64,000 nucleotides of DNA. It comes from Candidatus Thorarchaeota archaeon. Lineage in GTDB: Archaea > Asgardarchaeota > Thorarchaeia > Thorarchaeales > Thorarchaeaceae. Positions within the stretch are counted from its first letter, which is position 1. The number at the start of each line of letters is the position of its first letter. The stretch is taken from positions 128,001-192,000 of the forward strand of contig RDOC01000004.1 in assembly GCA_011364985.1 (NCBI GenBank), written 5' to 3'. Below, one piece after another: positions 2,550 through 13,539 of the stretch. The notes under the pieces were generated by a model. The model saw nothing but the letters and a program-made list of their open reading frames with translations. It was not told where the DNA came from and searched no databases. Position numbers and translations under genes: made by a program.

Positions 2550-2667
2550 TGGTGCGGAGGGCGAGATTTGAACTCGCGATTCGGACGCCGAGTGGCAATC
2601 GCTCAGCGAACTCCTACGAGATAGGGATCTGAACCCTACGCCTTTGACCAGGCTTGGCAACCTCCGC
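2550..2667 (-). tRNA. tRNA-Leu(CAG) with a 30-nt insertion (possible non-canonical intron) at the variable arm/T-stem junction; CCA encoded
   Basis: GCGGAGG-TT-GCCAAGCCTGGTCAAAGGC-G-TAGGG-TTCAGAT-CCCTA-TCTCGTAGGAGTTC-[30 nt]-GCGAG-TTCAAAT-CTCGC-CCTCCGC-ACCA. Confidence 0.9.
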
Positions 2668-2739: not shown

Positions 2740-3513
2740 CTATGTTGGATACCCTATATTACGCACCCTGTTTCGCGATTCGATCATATCCTGCTTGAGG
2801 TGTTCCCAATTGCCAATCTGGTTCAAGACATCTTCTCTAGCGAGAGCTTCATTCACAGAGCCATCGTAAAGAACACTGCCGTTTCTAAGGACGAGCACCG
2901 AATCTGCCCAGTTCTCTAGAAAGAATCTGTTGTGGGTGGTATACAATACACTCATGTCTTCATTTCGGGGATCTTCGATAATCTTAACCAGGCGGCGAAC
3001 CATTGGAAAATCAATACCAGTAAAGGGCTCATCGAGGAATAGAATCCGTGGCCGCATAGCAACAACTCCGGCAAGAGCTACACGCTTAGCCTGACCGTGA
3101 CTCATCTGATTGACTGGCCGGTCTCTAAAATCAGACATCTGGACAATTCCCAACTCCGTTCTGATCCTTTCCTCGACCTCGTCTTCTGAGAGGCCTTGGT
3201 TCCGTGGTCCAAAAGCAACGTCTTCCCATACAGTTAGAGCAAAGAGCTGGTCATCTAGATTCTGAAACAGGAATCCTATTTCCTGTCGGACCTGCCATAG
3301 ATTTTTACGGGTACGAGCTCTATCAAATACATATATCTCACCTGCCTCAGGTTCAAGCAAACCAAGAATCAGTTTGAAGAGCGTTGTCTTTCCAGAGCCA
3401 TTCAACCCGACCAAGGCTTTCTACTCGCCTTGATGTAGCTGGAAACTCACGTCCTCGATAGAGAAGTCATCATAACTGAAGTACAGTCTGGTAATATCAA
3501 GTGCGCACGTCAA
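2740..3513 (-). pseudogene. cbiO: ECF/CbiO-type ABC ATPase with an in-frame TAG before Walker A
   Basis: TTG 3513 MTCALDITRLYFSYDDFSIEDVSFQLHQGE*KALVGLNGSGKT; stop at 3421-3423; ECF motifs FQNxDDQLF and DVAFGPxN, signature MSHGQ, FLDEP. Confidence 0.8.
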
Positions 3514-4854: not shown

Positions 4855-4876
4855 TGGGGCCCGAAGGGGGAATCGA
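4855..4876 (-). pseudogene. 3' fragment of the disrupted original tRNA-His (T-loop to CCA)
   Basis: minus strand TCGATT-CCCCC-TTCGGGC-C-CCA; His discriminator C; pairs with the GCCCGAG acceptor strand of the 5' fragment at 13538. Confidence 0.8.
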
Positions 4877-4960
4877 GAATCAGACTCCCATTAGCTTGAG
4901 TTAGATTCTCCTTGTAAACAAACTTATCATCATATTTACATGTACTAAAATGATGATAAG
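4875..4960. repeat. two adjacent inverted repeats/hairpins at the boundary of the secondary insert
   Basis: GAGAATC(4875-4881)/GATTCTC(4904-4910) and perfect 11-bp CTTATCATCAT(4923-4933)/ATGATGATAAG(4950-4960). Confidence 0.75.
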
Positions 4961-4963
4961 AAA

Positions 4964-5194
4964 ATGGAGGCGGAATTGAAGGACATCTTGGAAAACGGAA
5001 AGGATTGGGAAAAAGCAAAAACGACTACCCCAGGACTATGGATTTGCAAAATGCCCGGAAAAGGCGACAACCCTCCGAGCCTTGTCATCATCATTAATCC
5101 AATTGAGAATATTAACCCGCCTACATCAAAGAAATTAGATAGAAGTAGATTCTTTGAAGTAACAATGTCAGTATATCGTTTCAACGATTCTTAA
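4964..5194 (+). CDS. hypothetical protein, probably a truncated member of a small archaeal 'GKDWE' family
   Basis: LKDILENGKDWEKAKTTTPGLWICKMPG...PSLVIIINP resembles a conserved archaeal hypothetical family (from memory); the C-terminus looks degenerate. Confidence 0.5.
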   Translation: MEAELKDILENGKDWEKAKTTTPGLWICKMPGKGDNPPSLVIIINPIENINPPTSKKLDRSRFFEVTMSVYRFNDS

Positions 5195-5304
5195 TGAGTA
5201 GTTTCGGCAATTTCGATACCACAGAGAAAAGAACTGACAGGTGGATAAGATGGATAAGCTAATAAGCCGCTGGCGAAAATCAGCTTCTTCGTTTGAGAAG
5301 CAAT

Positions 5305-5379
5305 GGCCCGAGTGGTGTACTGGCAGCATAAGAGATTGTGGCTCTCTTGAAACGGGTTCGATTCCCGTCTCGGGCCCCA
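5305..5379 (+). tRNA. tRNA-His(GUG), intact, G-1 and CCA encoded (replacement copy)
   Basis: G-GCCCGAG-TG-GTGT-ACTGGCA-GCAT-A-AGAGA-TTGTGGC-TCTCT-TGAA-ACGGG-TTCGATT-CCCGT-CTCGGGC-C-CCA. Confidence 0.96.
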
Positions 5380-5449
5380 TATTCCATCTCATCACGAGGC
5401 GTAGCAGTTTTTTGAGATAATGTCTTTTGTTATCCAGATGACATTAATA

Positions 5450-5540
5450 ATCCAACGATAGCAAAGGAGCCACAGCCGTTCATTTTCAATTGGACCTGAT
5501 TTTGCATCAGGCTGTCCCTCCAGGAACGGCACTGGATACT
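5450..5540 (-). ncRNA. candidate TnpB omegaRNA (3' scaffold plus guide)
   Basis: Overlaps the tnpB 3' end; GCCGTTC(5530-5524) pairs with GAACGGC(5481-5475) around hairpin CCTGAT-GCAAA-ATCAGG; ends in TGTGG followed by flank-derived CTCCTTTG...; 5' boundary unknown. Confidence 0.6.
5462..5469 (-). pseudogene. middle fragment of the disrupted tRNA-His (3' side of the anticodon stem)
   Basis: CTCCTTTG directly follows the element's right-end TGTGG; TCCTT pairs perfectly with AAGGA of the 5' fragment. Confidence 0.7.
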
Positions 5541-7672
5541 CTGTCTTGAACATGAATGATGTTTCGGGCTGCATTCACATCAGCATGGAAATGTTCGTCA
5601 CACAATGAACAATAGAAGTATTCTCCACCCCTTCTCTCGACGGTGGACTGCTCATCTGCAACACGAACACCACGCTCACCACATACATGGCAGGTCTGAG
5701 AAGTGAACCTTGGGTTCACTGTCCACACACTGTATGGTGAGTGTCCAAGTGACACTCGCATATATCTCACTGTGTCTATAATCTTCCCCCATAGATTCGA
5801 ACTTAGGTTGTACGACAGGTCCTTTGACCCACCATGAGCCTGAAAGCTCCTGAGATCCTCGAAGAAAATCTTCTTGACTCGATGCTCCTCACAGAACCAG
5901 ACGGTCTTTGATGCAATGATTCGGGCGATCTCACGGTCAAGACGACGGATCTTTCTCCATAGGGCTTTGATATGCCTGTCCTTCTTGAGGATGTGTTTTG
6001 GATATGACAGTCCTGATCGTTTGCGTCCCCAATTGTTCCTCTTCCTGTCTGTAACTGATTGCAGATCATAGGCCTGCTTTCTCAAGAACTCTCTCTTCTT
6101 CACAAGCTGGTCCACTCTCAACAGGAGTTCCCTGTATTCCTTCCCCTTCATCACCGAGAGCACCACGGGAACTCTAATTCCTCTGTCAACACCAGCCCTT
6201 GCTTCATACTCTCTTTCTCCAAGAACCTGCTGTATCAAGAAATCATCAGGAGCCAAGAAAGGAATCTGCAATGAAATTCTATTCCCCCTCAGAAGAAGTC
6301 GGGGAGGAGCGCTCCTCCTTGAACTCCTGAGTTCTGTGATCTTACTCTGAAGTTTGGTAGTTTCTTCTCCATCCTTACCCTTCTTCTGTTTCACTTTGTA
6401 GAGTCTGTGTGTCAGATGCTGTATCTCAATGGTGTTCATGAGCTGTTGATGCATATCTTCGAACATCGCCGCTCGAAACCTCAACCGCTGGGCACGATGA
6501 CAATCTCCATTGTCCTCTGCGTTCTGAGCCTTGGCTCCGTCTTTGATCGTGGCACTGGACATCCAATCCAGAAATCGAAAAGCCAAGGTCTTTCCCTTGT
6601 ACGGAGAACTCTCATGATGAGTGCCATTAATTCCTGGAGGGAGCTTGATGTGAAAGAGAATCTCATTCTTTCTCTCTGGGTCGACACTAAACCAGTACCC
6701 CTGTCCAGGCGAGTTCTCTGTACTTGCACTGAAATCCAGACTATGACTCCGAAGGCATGGAACAGAGAATAGGTATCCATTCTCTTTCCAAACCTCAAGT
6801 TTCCTTGCAGTAAGAAAGAGGATGCGTTCTTTCTCAGAAACAGAATCCTGAAGCAAGGATGCTACATACTTGCGTTGTCTTCCCCTCCATTGTATCTTGA
6901 CTCCTTGTTCCTCAAGAATGTGGTCATCCAGAGCTAGCCTGAGCTGTCTTAGGACTCCAAGGGAGTGATGAAAACCAGCCCCATCGTTCTTTGCTGAATC
7001 GCATGCATCTCTCACTCTGCGGATAAGATTGGAGGGAATATGCTTTCTTCTCAGAAGTTGAAGTGCATCAGCAGCAGACTCGCTTAGCACCTTGATCGCT
7101 GCATTGAAGAGCTGCCTTCGTGTCCAGTCTGCCAGAAGTGTACGTCCAGCGTGCTCAAGGGCATTGCGATAGAGTCGCTCAAAGCATAATGCCTGAATTT
7201 CCTCGTTCTGCTGGTAATTCAAATCCCTCATCTTCCTGAGAAGGGTATAAGCTCGCCCCCTGTATTCGGATAGTTGCTGACCAAGTGACTGCACACGGTC
7301 ATTATCCTTGTATATTCTTGCAAGCATGAGATTCACTACTTGGACATAGTTGTCAAAGAGAGAACCAAGAAGCTGCAAGTCAACCTCGTCCGCTTTCTTC
7401 CCAGAGCGCTTGGGTATCAGCGTAAATATCTCTTGATTTGGTTTTCTTGATGAAGAAAAGAAGGGGTCAGGTCTTCGATTTCTCCTCCTCTTTGCAATAA
7501 CTCTGTCAACAGAGTTCAGAACAAACGACTCGACAAGATAGGATTTCGATGGGGGTATTATAAAGTTGCCATCAATTTTCTCTTGCTTCTTCTGAGTTTG
7601 AGTGACAGAACCAGATTTCTGCTTCCAGTGATGGCGCTGGATTTCTTGCTTCATCATATGTTCCTGAGTCAT
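5507..7672 (-). CDS. tnpB: large TnpB/Cas12f-like RNA-guided RuvC endonuclease (721 aa)
   Basis: RuvC-I AGVDRG, RuvC-II FFEDL, NPRFTSQTCHVC...CSLC zinc finger, RuvC-III HADVNAARNI. Confidence 0.9.
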   Translation of the reverse strand: MTQEHMMKQEIQRHHWKQKSGSVTQTQKKQEKIDGNFIIPPSKSYLVESFVLNSVDRVIAKRRRNRRPDPFFSSSRKPNQEIFTLIPKRSGKKADEVDLQLLGSLFDNYVQVVNLMLARIYKDNDRVQSLGQQLSEYRGRAYTLLRKMRDLNYQQNEEIQALCFERLYRNALEHAGRTLLADWTRRQLFNAAIKVLSESAADALQLLRRKHIPSNLIRRVRDACDSAKNDGAGFHHSLGVLRQLRLALDDHILEEQGVKIQWRGRQRKYVASLLQDSVSEKERILFLTARKLEVWKENGYLFSVPCLRSHSLDFSASTENSPGQGYWFSVDPERKNEILFHIKLPPGINGTHHESSPYKGKTLAFRFLDWMSSATIKDGAKAQNAEDNGDCHRAQRLRFRAAMFEDMHQQLMNTIEIQHLTHRLYKVKQKKGKDGEETTKLQSKITELRSSRRSAPPRLLLRGNRISLQIPFLAPDDFLIQQVLGEREYEARAGVDRGIRVPVVLSVMKGKEYRELLLRVDQLVKKREFLRKQAYDLQSVTDRKRNNWGRKRSGLSYPKHILKKDRHIKALWRKIRRLDREIARIIASKTVWFCEEHRVKKIFFEDLRSFQAHGGSKDLSYNLSSNLWGKIIDTVRYMRVSLGHSPYSVWTVNPRFTSQTCHVCGERGVRVADEQSTVERRGGEYFYCSLCDEHFHADVNAARNIIHVQDRVSSAVPGGTA

Positions 7673-7848: not shown

Positions 7849-10800
7849 ATGAGAGGTAGAAAGGGAAGAATAAACAGCCCAAGTGGCATCCTGAGTACTG
7901 CAATCTACATGGGTCTGGTCGCCCTGTGTCGAATCTCTAGAAACAGAGCAAGTAAGAAGACTAGAAAGTTCCACCGAAGTATCGAGAAGATGTGGGCATC
8001 AGCCCGAGAAGACTACAAGGTCCAAAAGGGCCTAAGACAGAATGACTTCTCGCCTATCAAAAATGCGGAACCAAACATGCGAGGACAATTTCTAAAATTT
8101 GTCTGGACAAGCACAAAACGATATGGAAACAAGGAGTTCAAGCGCGTCTATAGCTGGTTGGAAGGAACGGTTGGACCTCTCAATGCACTTCTGAACTATG
8201 CTGGAGCTTGCCTTCGAGACCTTGCTATGGTTCTATATCCTTTTCCACAGCCTCAGAGGTTCCAAATTCGTGAATGGCCGAACGGGACTAGAAGGATTCT
8301 CACTGAATCAGAAGCTAGTGAGATTACAAAGGATGGTACAGTAAAAGTCCACTGGCGGAGTGGGTATGAGAGGAATGGCAAGAATCCTCGAGTGTTACTC
8401 TCGCATCCAACCTTGCCTAGTCTGGATTTTGTAGACATGATACGGACACATTGCGTCGAGCTCTGTCGACAATGTTTTATCTATCACGTCCCTAGGACTG
8501 AGGCACATCGATACATACGCCTCCTTATTCATCGACTCAAGCCCTTCCTTGACTGGATCTACACAAATGGACAAGAGGGCCGTTCTGGGTTCAATCCTCA
8601 TGCTGACCATGAACTTAGGAAGATGGTCCTTGAGATAAGGTCACTCTATAGAAAAAGTGCTAAGACTAGTAGACGTATCTCGGGGCAGCATAACGAGAAA
8701 CCCATTGACCTCTCTCTTGAGAAAATCCGCCAGAAGGGCATCAAACAATTGGAAGAATCCACTGATGCAAAGGAAAGAAAGCTGTTACAGAAATTCCTAA
8801 ACTATATCGATACTGCATCAGGAGTCGTAGCACGACGTGATATCGAGAAACTAATAGGTCAGATATTGGCTCTTAGTTCACGAGAGGGTACTACTTGGCA
8901 CAGGGTCCTGCTCTCAGACCTCCACCATCCGAAGTCCCTTCGTCAGGTCATTTTTTCTGGGGATCAGCTGCTTACTTCATTCTCATCAATCCTAATAGTT
9001 GCGGAACTCCCTGTTGCAGGACATTCCGGACGAGTGGACCTGACCATTTTCATCAGAAGAGAGATTGCAGGAGAGGTCTTGTGGACTCCGGTGATGATCC
9101 TTGAGATTAAGACAAAGGCAACCTTTGATTTCAACCTCTACGGATTTGAACTCAAGCGAAAAAGAAAGCATGCTGTCACCCCTGCTTTCTACGCATGGAA
9201 ACGCACTATGACTGGGAATGAGTGGCAGAGCATTGTCAATGCAAGTCCCGACCCAGATGCCCTTAATCAACTTCGAGCCTATGAACAGGAGCTTATTGCA
9301 GAGTATAGACAGTTAGCCGCTCATGACCCAGCTCCGCCCTCCTCGCTTTGGAAAGGAGTCATTGTCTTGGATGCTGAAGCGAGTCCGGAGGACATATTTC
9401 CAGCCGTCCAGTTTCTTCTTGAAGATCTGAAGACTGGGCTCCTACAGCAGCTGATTGATCGAGATTCCTTCATTGCTGTTACACCAAAATCCCTAGCTTT
9501 AGAAGGGGACGATCCCAGGGTTTCTCTACTAGTTTCTCCAGCCAGGGGACCTACTGGATTACTCGGCGAGATGGAGCCTCCCACAAGTCTACCCATTGAC
9601 GATCCCTTTGCTGACCGAGAGAGCGACGACCGACTTCTAACACTCTATGTTTCCATTCCTTCTCCAACCTCCTCGGGAGTGACTGCAGCAAGACTCTCTC
9701 GAAACTGGCATCTCCTTCATCATATTCAGGAGTGTATTGAAACAATCTCCTCCATAGAAGATGTGGTGTGGCTAGACCTTATGGGGGATTACAAGAGCGA
9801 TGAGCTTGTCAAGAAACGATTCGGCTTGCATTCCTTGAGACAGGAGAAGATGATATCCAAGAAGTCCTTTCGGGAACTCACCTCAATCCTTCAATCCATC
9901 AGGTTTCTCGACCTGAGTCCATTCATGAACGGGATTCTTACCGAAGGCGCACAGGCATTTAGCAGCCTACTAAACCATATTGCAGCTACAATCCCAGCTG
10001 AGAATGGAGAACAGATCATCATCCTTGATGGATGGACAGACCTGCAAGATATGATTCCAAGACATCAACAGCACCTACTTCGTATCCTTGAGCGAAAACT
10101 GCTTCATGCGCTCCCTCAATCAAATGTTAACATCATCTGGATTGATGACGGTGTGCCCCATACTAAGATGAACCCAGACTACCAGCGTCAGTGCATCAGT
10201 CCTCTTAGGTATGACTCCCTCCGCAAGACTCATGTTGATGAGTTCATCTACAATATGCCAATACCCTCTCCTAGGTTCTGGTGGACAAATCCACAACATG
10301 ATGATATTCGAATCATTGTGCAAGACACCCCGACCAGAGAAAACCCCTGGAAGACGGCAATCTACGTTCCACAACTTTCGGGACTTGCAGAGAAGTTTAG
10401 AGGTCTTGCCAAGCGGGACAGAGTCATTGCTCCTAAGGAAATAGCACAGGATTTGGAAGGGAAGAAACCTATGTATGGACGAGATGTGACCCTGTGTCGC
10501 ATTCATCCATCTTCAGGTATTCTCTCAGAGGATGAACTCTCTGACCTTCTAGAAGATGCGCTCACTCTTGTGCCCAGTACCCTGAGAGAGAGGATGCCCC
10601 GACTAGAAGAAGAGTGTGAAGAAATCCAGATTTCTGAAGATGCTATCTGGCAATCTGTTATCCAGACGACTAGCTCTGCAAGCGGTTCTACGATGGAAGA
10701 AAGGATGAGAATTGATGTAACAAGACCACCCCCACGACCAGGGGGAACTGACCGATACATCGATGTTCTCATCAATGCTAAAAGAGAGCGGATTACAAGA

Positions 10801-13173
10801 TCTTGGTCCTATGACCAGACCCCCAAGCAATTTCCTGATGATGCAGATGAGTCTTATCTGTGTACATTCCCTCCAGAGTTGACGATCTCTGATGCAGTAG
10901 AGATCGACTCCATTGAAACCCGTGAACGAGAGCTTGGACGGCTCAAATCAGCAACCAGATACCTGAAGCAACAGACCTTCCTCTCACAGAAACTAAGGAA
11001 AATGTGCAGGAGGATTGAGAGGCATTGCAATCAGCAATTTGCTCTCATTAAAGACAACCCCTCACTGAAGACCAGTAACTTCTTCTTTAAAGCACTCAAA
11101 CAGGTCGAAACAATTATCCTAGAGGACACGCTAGGAGCAACTATCTGGGAAACACTCCGTTCATCTCGACAAGAACTACTTGATGTTCTGAACTCAGACA
11201 ACAGACAATTCTTAGAGGAGGTCATGAAGGAAACACCTGATGCTCTCCTGCTCTATGGCAATAATCTTGTCCTAGCAATTGTTTCTGTTCTCAAGGACAG
11301 CAACTTGTCTTTAGCAAAGCCTCTCTGGGAGTCTGTTGCTAGGTGGACATTATATCAGATAGGAATGAACAGTGACAATGATATCACAAAGACAGTCTAT
11401 AGCTTTCGAGCAATTCTCTCCAACCTGAGAGCGCGCATCAATACTCTTTCGCATCTCAATCTCCCTGAGATGATTCTGGAACAAGAGCAGGTTGGTGCGA
11501 TCATTTGGATGGAGTCTGAGGCCAGGTATGATGCACTTCTTCTAATATCTCATGATAATACTGGCTTTCTAATTGGCATTATTGAGGGACTAAACAATAG
11601 ATGGATTCCAGCAAAATGGCACTCCTGTAAGACAACTCCCCAGCAGTTAAAACACCATGTGCAGAACGCTCTCACATCCACAGATAGGACACCTGTTATC
11701 ACGACCACGGTTAGAGATTTGAGTGTCCTCCTGATACCTGCGTTGACCGAGGATGATGAACTCGTCTGGAGCTGCTTCTCTCTGAAGCATGGTAGACCCA
11801 GCGGACGACGAAACAGTATTCCATGGATAAAGCTAGAACCTGCTGAATCTCTGGCAGCGCCCAGCCACGTACCTGAGATCCCAGACGAAATTGACGAAAC
11901 TCTCCGGAAGATAATTCGGGTCAAGCACAGCATCACTCCTGTAAAGCTCCTCGTTGGTATAGATGAGGAGCTTGAGGTCTACGAAGTTCAGTTAACGGGC
12001 GAAGGCATTGAAGAACGACGTAAGTTCAGACGAACCAGAGAAGCGGTTCGATTTCTCAGAACTCCAATCAGAGAGGGAGTGGGGTATCGGTGGCAGGGAC
12101 AGACTCTCACTTGGGACCATCGCAAAGATATCGATTATGGCGATTCACTCTCTTTTCTCAGACCTCTTATTCATCGGAGCAAGTTCTACCCCGATATCTA
12201 TCATTATCCAAAGACATGCAAGGACCTCCTTACCGCAAGCAAAGGACATGAGATAATCATGGTCATCAGTCAAGAGGGACCGACATACCGGGTCAAGTTT
12301 CAGGATCTCCCAGACCAATCTGCTCTGAGAGAACTGGAGATAGCGGAACTGGACATCCATGCACTGGGCCTACTTGCAGAGTGCAAGGAACTCTTTGACC
12401 TCGGAAGCAGGACTTGGCACCCATTAGTGCTAGATGTCAACGCTATCATGGACCTCTGGTTCCCCAAGCTTCATGAATACCCCCGGCTAATTGAGGCGAT
12501 TCAGGCCGCTGATGTTAACGAGTTCAACTGGTCAAGAGAAACATGGTTCATAGAGATTAGGCTTTGGAGAAATGAACTGAGATGGTGCATCATGTCGAAG
12601 ACAACAGGACTGCCTTGGATGAACAGGGAATTCACATATATCCTTACTCTTGGAAGAGAGCCTGATAAGGAGTTGGAGGCTTTCAAGGAGGTGGTCACGG
12701 CCATTGTTCAGCCAGAGCATCTCTGCAATCTGGATGACGAGCTTGAAACGTACAAGGTGACACTCAAGGAGAGGTATAGTGAATACCTTCGGACTGTCAG
12801 TGTGGAAGACGCGGATGAGAGAAAAGCTGAAGATGAGCTGGAGAAAGCTGCTGCTATAGGCGCTCCATGGGAGAGAATAGCGTTCAGGTATAGCGGAATG
12901 AAACTCAGGAGAATAAAAAGAAACACCGTGGTTGTTGTTTCCTTGGTGTCCGGCGAAGAAGAAGCAGAGGTGTACGTGGTGAGGGATGTCCAAAGGTATG
13001 TGAATGAATCTCGGTCAGCAGGTGCAATCCACTCAGAACCTGTTGATGATGAGGTGAAGGAGAGTCTTGCAGACTATGAGTTTGAGAAGGGCGAGCTTGA
13101 AAGAATCAAGGCGGCTGTCAGGAAAGTGTTGGAGGAGGAAGGAGTCAGGTTTTCTAATGAACAGGCCTTTTAG
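7849..13173 (+). CDS. giant (1774 aa) protein with a PD-(D/E)XK nuclease domain and a degenerate P-loop-like domain
   Basis: VAELPV...GRVDLTIF...ILEIKTK...NQLRAY...KGVIV nuclease motifs; SPTSSGVT, VVWLDL and IIILDGW resemble RecA-like Walker remnants. Confidence 0.75.
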   Translation: MRGRKGRINSPSGILSTAIYMGLVALCRISRNRASKKTRKFHRSIEKMWASAREDYKVQKGLRQNDFSPIKNAEPNMRGQFLKFVWTSTKRYGNKEFKRVYSWLEGTVGPLNALLNYAGACLRDLAMVLYPFPQPQRFQIREWPNGTRRILTESEASEITKDGTVKVHWRSGYERNGKNPRVLLSHPTLPSLDFVDMIRTHCVELCRQCFIYHVPRTEAHRYIRLLIHRLKPFLDWIYTNGQEGRSGFNPHADHELRKMVLEIRSLYRKSAKTSRRISGQHNEKPIDLSLEKIRQKGIKQLEESTDAKERKLLQKFLNYIDTASGVVARRDIEKLIGQILALSSREGTTWHRVLLSDLHHPKSLRQVIFSGDQLLTSFSSILIVAELPVAGHSGRVDLTIFIRREIAGEVLWTPVMILEIKTKATFDFNLYGFELKRKRKHAVTPAFYAWKRTMTGNEWQSIVNASPDPDALNQLRAYEQELIAEYRQLAAHDPAPPSSLWKGVIVLDAEASPEDIFPAVQFLLEDLKTGLLQQLIDRDSFIAVTPKSLALEGDDPRVSLLVSPARGPTGLLGEMEPPTSLPIDDPFADRESDDRLLTLYVSIPSPTSSGVTAARLSRNWHLLHHIQECIETISSIEDVVWLDLMGDYKSDELVKKRFGLHSLRQEKMISKKSFRELTSILQSIRFLDLSPFMNGILTEGAQAFSSLLNHIAATIPAENGEQIIILDGWTDLQDMIPRHQQHLLRILERKLLHALPQSNVNIIWIDDGVPHTKMNPDYQRQCISPLRYDSLRKTHVDEFIYNMPIPSPRFWWTNPQHDDIRIIVQDTPTRENPWKTAIYVPQLSGLAEKFRGLAKRDRVIAPKEIAQDLEGKKPMYGRDVTLCRIHPSSGILSEDELSDLLEDALTLVPSTLRERMPRLEEECEEIQISEDAIWQSVIQTTSSASGSTMEERMRIDVTRPPPRPGGTDRYIDVLINAKRERITRSWSYDQTPKQFPDDADESYLCTFPPELTISDAVEIDSIETRERELGRLKSATRYLKQQTFLSQKLRKMCRRIERHCNQQFALIKDNPSLKTSNFFFKALKQVETIILEDTLGATIWETLRSSRQELLDVLNSDNRQFLEEVMKETPDALLLYGNNLVLAIVSVLKDSNLSLAKPLWESVARWTLYQIGMNSDNDITKTVYSFRAILSNLRARINTLSHLNLPEMILEQEQVGAIIWMESEARYDALLLISHDNTGFLIGIIEGLNNRWIPAKWHSCKTTPQQLKHHVQNALTSTDRTPVITTTVRDLSVLLIPALTEDDELVWSCFSLKHGRPSGRRNSIPWIKLEPAESLAAPSHVPEIPDEIDETLRKIIRVKHSITPVKLLVGIDEELEVYEVQLTGEGIEERRKFRRTREAVRFLRTPIREGVGYRWQGQTLTWDHRKDIDYGDSLSFLRPLIHRSKFYPDIYHYPKTCKDLLTASKGHEIIMVISQEGPTYRVKFQDLPDQSALRELEIAELDIHALGLLAECKELFDLGSRTWHPLVLDVNAIMDLWFPKLHEYPRLIEAIQAADVNEFNWSRETWFIEIRLWRNELRWCIMSKTTGLPWMNREFTYILTLGREPDKELEAFKEVVTAIVQPEHLCNLDDELETYKVTLKERYSEYLRTVSVEDADERKAEDELEKAAAIGAPWERIAFRYSGMKLRRIKRNTVVVVSLVSGEEEAEVYVVRDVQRYVNESRSAGAIHSEPVDDEVKESLADYEFEKGELERIKAAVRKVLEEEGVRFSNEQAF

Positions 13174-13330
13174 ACTAATGAGCACACAACTCGTAGACCC
13201 TTCATGAGAAGAAGGCGATGAGAGATATCATGTCAGAAACCAGCTCCTTCTGTGGACTCTGCTGTTCTGGTATATAGAGAATCTCAACACCCACTCCATA
13301 GTCCTTGAGGATCCCTAGAAGAATGCTGGT
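13160..13330 (-). pseudogene. tnpA: IS607 TnpA serine recombinase C-terminal remnant
   Basis: Manual translation ILLGILKDYGVGVEILYIPEQQSPQKELVSDMISLIAFFS*RVYELCAH*SKR matches the IS607 pattern YGVEIEV...SPEEELVEDLISIITSFSARLYGxRSHK; stops at 13202-13204 and 13175-13177. Confidence 0.8.
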
Positions 13331-13502
13331 GACCTTGACATCCTACTCGGTGTTTAGGACTGACCTAGTCTTTAAAGCAGTCATCTTACCCTTTGTCAAG
13401 AAAAAAAGCAGTGTTTTTTTCTCAAGGATTTTCAGTGGGAAGCTAATATTGAACATACGGAAACACGAGCGAAGAACGAGGTGAGATACATGCAGAGATT
13501 AG

Positions 13503-13539
13503 CCACAATCCTTTATGTTACCATTACACCACTCGGGCC
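13503..13539 (-). pseudogene. 5' half of the disrupted original tRNA-His(GUG)
   Basis: G-GCCCGAG-TG-GTGT-AATGGTA-ACAT-A-AAGGA-TTGTGG; upstream context (CTAATAAG...GCTTCTT...CAATGGCCCGAG) is homologous to that of the intact copy. Confidence 0.88.

Follow-up and report, generated by a model that had tools for sequence, protein, structure and literature searches.

This locus raises the question of whether the sequence across the 3' end of a tnpB-like gene in a Thorarchaeota genome is a TnpB guide RNA (omegaRNA) and, if so, where the scaffold of that RNA stops and where its guide begins. Cas12 guides descend from TnpB guide RNAs, which are sought after as compact tools for genome editing. A first-pass annotation of the window, by which we mean the whole 64,000-nt stretch of DNA that was analysed, had proposed such an RNA from two nested stems, an outer GCCGTTC/GAACGGC and an inner CCTGAT/ATCAGG, with a scaffold ending at a TGTGG motif. 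The features considered here are collected in Table 1.

Table 1. Features of the element and its insertion site, in window coordinates.
Feature	Position	Strand	Details and basis
TnpB/Cas12f-like RuvC nuclease gene (tnpB)	5507..7672	-	721 aa; Pfam, NCBIfam, Foldseek
Conserved pseudoknotted scaffold, candidate omegaRNA handle	5475..5536	-	62 nt; alignments A1 and A5, covariance model, synonymous-site identity
H1 (scaffold)	5536-5532 with 5523-5519	-	UCCAG with CUGGA
H2, pseudoknot stem (scaffold)	5530-5524 with 5481-5475	-	GCCGUUC with GAACGGC
H3 (scaffold)	5517-5515 with 5494-5492	-	GGA with UCC; family form GGAC/GUCC
H4 (scaffold)	5511-5506 with 5500-5495	-	CCUGAU with AUCAGG; spans the TGA stop 5509-5507
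Candidate guide, flank directly after the scaffold	5455..5474	-	
Second, homologous pseudoknot	7568..7641	-	codons 11-35 of tnpB; UCCAG C GCCAUCA CUGGA ... AAAAU UGAUGGC
Giant ORF, divergent from tnpB	7849..13173	+	1774 aa; aCas1-like N-terminus by fold search
IS607-type serine-recombinase tnpA relic	13166..13324	-	C-terminal ~53 codons, in-frame stop
Old tRNA-His, 5' half	13501..13539	-	G-1 to U39, ending ...AAGGAUUGUGGCU
Old tRNA-His, 3' end	4855..4876	-	...UCGAUUCCCCCUUCGGGCCCCA
Intact tRNA-His(GUG)	5306..5379	+	convergent with tnpB

The tnpB product carries an N-terminal extension of ~480 aa, and TnpB/Cas12f models match its residues ~490-706 only. Pfam PF07282 scored 48.9 bits and NCBIfam guided_TnpB 69 bits, the latter under its cut-off of 100; the curated IS607_TnpB model NF038280 gave 16.1 bits against a cut-off of 350, which leaves the protein outside that curated class. 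PADLOC matches were to Cas12f/Cas12u models. The RuvC residues D496, E605 and D698 and the zinc finger cysteines C661/C664/C688/C691 were invariant in 35 homologues. With an AlphaFold model of the product (mean pLDDT 68.6), Foldseek retrieved Cas12k (8bd6_A, E 4.8e-6), several Cas12f and TnpB (8h1j, E 0.015) at low TM-scores (0.2-0.4), and the predicted fold is bilobed and Cas12k/Cas12f/TnpB-like. No CRISPR array was found in the window.

More than 200 relatives of 700-725 aa were found, nearly all of them in Thorarchaeota MAGs, the three closest being 78-69% identical. Within the same family tnpB was present in 33 of 61 genomes, with 0-14 matches each, many truncated or at contig ends, and the 1.7-Mb genome to which the window belongs holds nine scaffold copies, two with full genes and seven as remnants. 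This patchy, multi-copy spread is the distribution of a mobile element; for the same reason, the alternative of a conserved non-mobile housekeeping gene was rejected.

Both stems of the first-pass annotation were recovered from the letters of the minus strand and by RNAfold, and the overlap that it had reported with the tnpB stop was likewise correct, the TGA lying inside the inner hairpin. It had missed H1 and H3, as well as the Cas1-like gene inside the element. Because the loop of H1 is the 5' arm of H2, the scaffold is an H-type pseudoknot, in which a bulged hairpin formed by H3 and H4 sits between H1 and the closing GAACGGC; in the family alignment H4 is a variable hairpin across the stop codon. 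The scaffold covers the final nine tnpB codons plus the stop, in the tnpB sense, and this overlap with the tnpB 3' end on the sense strand was seen in all aligned loci, not in the window alone. The minimum free energy fold of 5536-5475 came to -19.2 kcal/mol (z = -2.25), and 3 of 200 shuffles folded as well, which is mildly unusual for a single sequence. Since the single-sequence fold is only modest, the significance of the scaffold comes from its relatives.

The set of relatives comprised the 3' ends of 35 loci at first and then 106 distinct Thorarchaeota copies, aligned over 62 positions (alignment A5). The conserved block is 46-68 nt long and runs from YCCAGUGCCGUUCCUGG through ACAAUGAACGGY. 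Paired cells made up 91.0% in A5, compared with 84.0 +/- 0.3% in shuffles and 30-45% with slid partners. Both sides had changed in 17 of the 22 pairs, compared with 10.0 +/- 1.6 in shuffles, and 0 of 500 shuffles were as high, with the caveat that shuffle statistics overstate independence because related scaffold sequences share ancestry. Compensatory examples include GCCAUUU/AAAUGGC, GUCGUUC/GAGCGAC and CCCAC/GUGGG. G.U cells exceeded A.C cells both overall (220 to 64) and within H2 (109 to 22), an excess which indicates that the pairing is specific to the tnpB-sense strand and which fits RNA rather than duplex DNA. The first-pass annotation had suggested a covariance model from the 3' regions of homologous tnpB genes as a check; besides the covariation just described, a model built from the 106 copies scored the window site at 60.4 bits (E = 7.7e-12).

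Synonymous-site identity was 0.3-0.55 over the last 250 tnpB codons and reached 0.7-0.99 only in the final ~12. This confinement of the constraint to the last ~12 codons indicates that the conserved RNA is compact, and a longer scaffold, sought by synonymous-site constraint over 750 nt upstream, yielded no further conserved RNA. A search of the region against Rfam 15 (gathering and E-value) returned only tRNAs and one chance snoRNA row; Rfam holds a family only once it has been described. Judged by the alignments, 5536-5475 is well supported as a conserved structured RNA of the sense strand, at the place expected of an omegaRNA.

Where does this scaffold end? Family conservation stops after AACGG[U/C], and the last paired base in the window is 5475. 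Of 95 matches, 69 have T as the final scaffold base and 26 have C. Among 94 different flanks, positions +1 to +60 past the scaffold each carried at most 0.22 bit, and positions +1 to +5 were random, G being present at +4 in 10/94 and at +5 in 24/94, with no enrichment. The boundary at 5475 together with the variable flanks places TGTGG (5474-5470) in the flank, outside the scaffold. Thus the first-pass annotation was right that TGTGG directly follows the outer stem, but conservation and pairing end before it, at 5475. Its guide start at 5469 conflicts with the same end of family conservation and of the last pseudoknot pair; a start at 5474 is more likely, and the earlier placement was probably off by five bases. 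Nor did a target-adjacent motif (TAM) of about TGTGG hold up, given the randomness of +1 to +5 over the 94 flanks and the junction repeats, which differ between sites.

The flank leads to the insertion site. An insert of ~8.0 kb splits an old tRNA-His within its anticodon loop. The minus strand at 13539-13501 reads G-1 followed by GCCCGAGUGGUGUAAUGGUAACAUAAAGGAUUGUGGCU, with unrelated sequence thereafter. The heptamer TGTGGCT, U33 to U39 of tRNA-His, has a single copy in the intact tRNA but two copies here (13507-13501 and 5474-5468), and so the TGTGG that the first-pass annotation had noticed at the left flank is indeed present, as TGTGG(CT) of the left junction. We read the two copies, from their position at both junctions, as a 7-nt target duplication. 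The first 13 nt of the candidate guide, TGTGGCUCCUUUG (5474-5462), are positions 33-45 of the old tRNA-His, and its first 7 nt repeat the left junction. Past the scaffold, the flank has the sequence UGUGGCUCCUUUG, in which UCCUU complements AAGGA of the old tRNA-His. Guide positions 9 and 10 are mismatched in the intact tRNA-His of the window, and two more differences lie immediately 5' of the match; the anticodon stem of this tRNA is AGAGA/UCUCU instead of AAGGA/UCCUU, that is, with swapped stem pairs. As side observations, this intact gene lies in the stretch 4877-5461, between the 13-nt tRNA-derived flank and the old tRNA 3' end, and the old tRNA-His is without ~8 nt between those two pieces.

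For a guide that starts at 5474, the target would be TGTGGCTCCTTTGCTATCG. Analogy, together with the ~15-16 nt retained in a group of loci at tRNA-Lys genes (see below), leads us to assume a guide length of ~16 nt. In an intact tRNA the TAM would lie 5' of the match (...AGGAT). At five sites the duplicated segment is immediately preceded, on its 5' side, by AGGAT, TGGGC, AGGTC, AGGGT and GAGGT, with a GG 2-4 nt upstream of the duplicated bases; no TAM consensus was obtained from them, and we suggest only tentatively a GG-containing TAM resembling the ...CGGY end of the scaffold itself. In its own genome the window guide had no second match closer than 3 mismatches in 16, and against all tRNAs of that genome it scored 9, within the range of shuffles (95th percentile 10). 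Inverted matches of each guide to its downstream 400 nt were at background level for most loci. The link to tRNA therefore rests on the anatomy of the junctions and on the orthologous locus L074, not on these generic similarity tests, which were not significant.

L074 (SDBU01000345.1, 2585-2810) is a syntenic orthologue with 66% identity. The 15 nt past its scaffold, UGUGGCUCCCCUGAC, equal the spliced form of the adjacent tRNA-His at 15/15 positions, and that tRNA-His gene has an intron at 37/38, after UGUGG and 5 nt into the guide match. This intron may be a shield against the guide. A second intron is present in the T-arm of the same tRNA. Archaeal tRNA introns normally stand at 37/38, and tRNA introns are common in the genome of the window, some at non-canonical positions; a 115-nt Rfam tRNA match at 2553-2667 (minus strand) was missed by ARAGORN and presumably bears an intron.

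Similar junctions were seen at other genes. Eleven loci lie beside a convergent tRNA-Lys(CUU), of which ~15-16 nt are kept from position 5 before the sequences diverge, and their left junctions consist of GGGC plus the duplicated bases. In the window's own genome, two remnants on one contig (C22:17241-17303 and C22:21249-21312, minus strand), each consisting of a C-terminal tnpB fragment and its scaffold, share almost the same flank (CUCCAAGCGGCUACG and CUCCUAGUGGCCACG); the first sits beside a convergent tRNA-Ser(CGA), and its flank resembles tRNA-Ser positions 9-24. At L135 (G040:C49), the flank to the right of 11638 (in tnpB orientation) used to be the C-terminal coding end of a host gene, and on the left, at ~3330-3450, a second copy with mostly synonymous differences completes that gene. 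This second copy looks like the protein-coding counterpart of the spare tRNA.

The junction repeats elsewhere were (C/T)AGTGGCT and TGGTGG after tRNA-Lys GGGC, CGACTAAGGT and GTATGAGC, and in the longer loci that were fetched they lay 7.7-8.3 kb upstream of the scaffold. They are 6-10 nt long, their sequences and their distance to any GG vary, and some are without GG. Left junctions were sought and not fixed at L137, L144, L145, L147, L140 and L142, and 7-mer left-junction matches at L146 and perhaps L148 may be due to chance. At L151 (G040:C211), a remnant scaffold (...ACAAUGAACGAC) precedes the left junction of the full element by 26 nt, ~8.15 kb upstream of that element's own scaffold, so that the newer copy has inserted just past the guide of the older one.

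The remainder of the insert is occupied mainly by the giant ORF, which is the divergent upstream neighbour of tnpB in 33 of 49 full-length loci. Its N-terminal ~250 aa have a Cas1-like catalytic fold, followed by a PD-(D/E)xK-like motif. When the model of its first 340 residues (pLDDT 81.6) was compared by VIA-align, the top 12 matches were all Cas1/casposase catalytic domains (Z 12.3-8.6), and the next, unrelated one scored 6.5. The likeness to Cas1 was found by fold search only: the giant ORF had no match in Pfam, PADLOC or a PDB sequence profile and no usable match in Atlas, and the Pfam Cas1 model matched nothing in the genome of the window. The tnpA relic is 70% identical to residues 147-199 of the TnpA of a paralogous element on contig 21 (tblastn, E 2e-17), and the Pfam Resolvase model found no match in it. 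Intact tnpA genes (MerR-HTH plus resolvase) are present in that contig-21 element (75 bits) and at L144 and L147; at L134 and L143, tnpA lies directly upstream of tnpB, without the giant gene. This distribution of intact and relic tnpA and of the giant gene suggests that the lineage is IS607-derived and that most copies gained the Cas1-like gene. The IS607 link made by the first-pass annotation is thus partly right: it is borne out by the tnpA genes, and at the junctions, where no GG stands at a fixed offset, the window repeat contains a GG and is 7 nt long. In these loci, one element joins three recombination systems: a serine recombinase, a Cas1-like integrase and an RNA-guided nuclease.

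A second pseudoknot, homologous to the scaffold, lies near the start of tnpB. The covariance model scored 7641-7568 at 25.5 bits (E 7e-4) and found the same structure at the same place of tnpB in 10 of 11 other loci (for example L007:4014-4081, L010:4008-4075 and L074:446-501). Its H1/H2 topology is that of the 3' scaffold, with the same ACAAU ahead of the 3' arm. In an alignment of 39 loci (A6), H1 and H2 were 97.9% paired, a value somewhat inflated since 35 of the 39 rows had been chosen with a pairing filter; the compensatory changes, which the filter leaves unaffected, included 9 of 12 pairs with both-side changes. The covariation score was 0.623, compared with 0.277 in shuffles. One idea is that the nuclease binds its own mRNA through this 5' copy.

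As far as sequence can tell, these results support the omegaRNA reading of the first-pass annotation: a conserved structured RNA over the tnpB 3' end, with a hypervariable flank next to it. We think it likely that 5536-5475 is the omegaRNA scaffold of a TnpB-like nuclease, with a guide that starts at 5474 and targets tRNA-His, in an IS607-derived element with a Cas1-like gene. Conservation, covariation, strand asymmetry, a sharp boundary, intact catalytic residues and the junction anatomy were observed; RNA production, protein binding and guided cleavage are what we infer. The scaffold RNA would be transcribed in the tnpB sense, fold into a compact H-type pseudoknot and end at the right end of the element, and the transcript would continue into the flank, supplying the guide from 5474 on. 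Such a guide (UGUGGCUCCUUUG...) would have the sense of tRNA-His 33-45. Since the broken tRNA is carried on by the flank in the same sense as tnpB, the guide would base-pair to the template strand in an intact tRNA-His gene. The nuclease would then be directed to the uninterrupted tRNA-His gene, which is the empty site, with the TAM 5' of the match (...AGGAU).

Several points bear on whether the pseudoknot is a guide handle at all. The 62-nt scaffold is much shorter than characterised TnpB omegaRNAs. The 5' copy, near the start of the ORF, shows that the fold need not adjoin a guide and may therefore serve regulation or protein binding instead, and since the end of the element overlaps the RNA, part of the conservation could reflect DNA-level recognition by the recombinase. 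One alternative is accordingly that the pseudoknot serves tnpB autoregulation, mRNA stability or termination, or is a recombinase site, the tRNA-like flank being simply the broken target. The covarying copy at codons 11-35, where no free guide can follow, the unusual shortness of the scaffold and the coincidence of the 3' copy with the element end all fit this alternative. However, the layout, in which a conserved fold gives way sharply to a fully variable flank in the sense orientation of an intact gene for an RNA-guided nuclease, is that of an omegaRNA, the G.U asymmetry speaks against a site in duplex DNA, and ~15-16 nt of flank are kept across the diverged tRNA-Lys loci whereas the sequence beyond is not. 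We regard a pseudoknot with no guide role as unlikely; a guide role and a non-guide role are also compatible with each other.

That the structure is a chance hairpin in a 3' untranslated region has next to no probability: the single sequence folds modestly better than shuffles, but 106 copies with compensatory changes and the E value of the covariance model refute it. The arrangement of the first-pass annotation keeps the guide RNA and shifts its parts: TGTGG would belong to the scaffold as the transposon-encoded motif, the TAM would be about TGTGG, recombination would take place at a GG, and the guide would run from 5469 (CUCCUUUGC...) with a target beginning at CTCCTTTG. TGTGG(CT) does stand at both junctions, the lineage does carry an IS607-type serine recombinase, and GG occurs within the other repeats AGTGGCT, TGGTGG and CGACTAAGGT. 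Moreover, the intron of the L074 tRNA-His, right after TGTGG, would part such a TAM from its target, although archaeal tRNA introns stand at 37/38 anyway. Against this arrangement, the 94 flanks are random after AACGGY with no GG at a fixed offset; 5474-5470 is in no stem, the last covarying pair closing at 5475; the first GG lies at varying distances from the scaffold end, and the flanks of C21 and L135 have none; and a 2-bp crossover leaves the 7-nt tRNA duplication unexplained. We consider it quite improbable, and retain the omegaRNA scaffold that ends at 5475 with a guide from 5474.

A further step would be a natural 'cut and rescue' drive, in which an essential gene is disrupted by the element, the element retains a guide that targets the intact allele, and a replacement copy that this guide cannot match lies alongside. 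The broken gene would be tRNA-His here, and tRNA-Lys, tRNA-Ser or the end of a protein-coding gene elsewhere; the replacement would evade the guide by swapped stem pairs in the window and, at L074, by an intron lying 5 nt into the match. This reading of the junction sequences is plausible but unproven, and on balance we hold it with more doubt than confidence. If it is true, archaeal tRNA introns and stem recoding can shield against RNA-guided nucleases, and the nuclease could use the pseudoknot in the tnpB mRNA to sense, or to limit, its own production.

How does this element compare with known systems? Altae-Tran et al. 2023 (PNAS, PMC10691335) described aCas1-associated TnpBs of Asgard archaea (groups Cas1H-Asgard-1 and -2), with a hypervariable stretch after a conserved T downstream of the aCas1-linked tnpB, proposed as guide, and a conserved GTTCACTCA motif downstream of the hypervariable region; the guide RNA was left unresolved there. 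The window element matches these loci. Like them, it has a Thorarchaeota host, a tnpB adjoining a Cas1 homologue (the presumed transposase), flanking repeats and a hypervariable flank after the scaffold-final base, which is T in 69/95. Beyond that description go the 62-nt pseudoknotted scaffold, its exact 3' end and the second copy near the start of tnpB; the family itself is already catalogued, and the scaffold, its boundary and the 5' copy are what is new. Unlike in that description, an IS607-type tnpA, intact or relic, is present in part of the loci here. The GTTCACTCA motif, at <=2 mismatches, occurred in 10/94 flanks at scattered positions, compared with 15/94 reversed controls, and so is not enriched; it may belong to the other Asgard group. 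For the Cas1-linked Asgard TnpBs, our results offer a concrete, covariation-backed 62-nt scaffold, a guide junction and natural tRNA targets for a cleavage assay. Natural tRNA targets also make testable the old idea that split or intron-bearing archaeal tRNA genes are protected from mobile elements.

Compared with the TnpB omegaRNAs of IS200/IS605 elements such as ISDra2, as outlined in PMC8730458 (which cites Karvelis 2021 and Altae-Tran 2021), the candidate RNA shares the sense-strand overlap with the tnpB 3' end, a pseudoknotted scaffold ending at the right end of the transposon, and a guide that is the flank and matches the empty donor or target site. It differs from that outline in that the conserved part is just 62 nt and shows no sequence or Rfam similarity to those omegaRNAs, the protein has 721 aa with a long N-terminal lobe, and a serine recombinase and/or a Cas1-like protein takes the place of the Y1 transposase as partner.

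IS607 elements share the MerR-HTH plus resolvase TnpA and the orientation of tnpB, with tnpA directly upstream of tnpB at L134 and L143. In contrast to IS607, tnpA in the window is a 53-codon relic, a 5.3-kb Cas1-like gene separates it from tnpB, and the junctions carry direct repeats of 6-10 nt rather than a bare GG core; the window repeat TGTGGCT contains a GG, yet is 7 nt long. The Cas1-fold integrase on a mobile element, the direct repeats at its junctions and the insertion in or near tRNA genes recall casposons. Unlike in casposons, a polymerase gene was not observed, the Cas1 domain makes up the N-terminal part of a 1774-aa protein that has an RNA-guided nuclease as its partner, and the junction repeats are shorter, about 7-8 nt; those of casposons are ~14-15 nt. 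Type V CRISPR-Cas differs in that the window contains no array and one scaffold copy stands 3' of the gene.

Finally, single in-frame TAGs were noted in a few homologous tnpB matches in related genomes. In the window, the frame of an ABC-type ATPase gene (2740-3414) runs upstream of its listed start through a TAG at ~3421-3423 (minus strand), just before the Walker A motif (...QGE*KALVGLNGSGKTTLF). This TAG marks either a pseudogene or a read-through/recoded codon.
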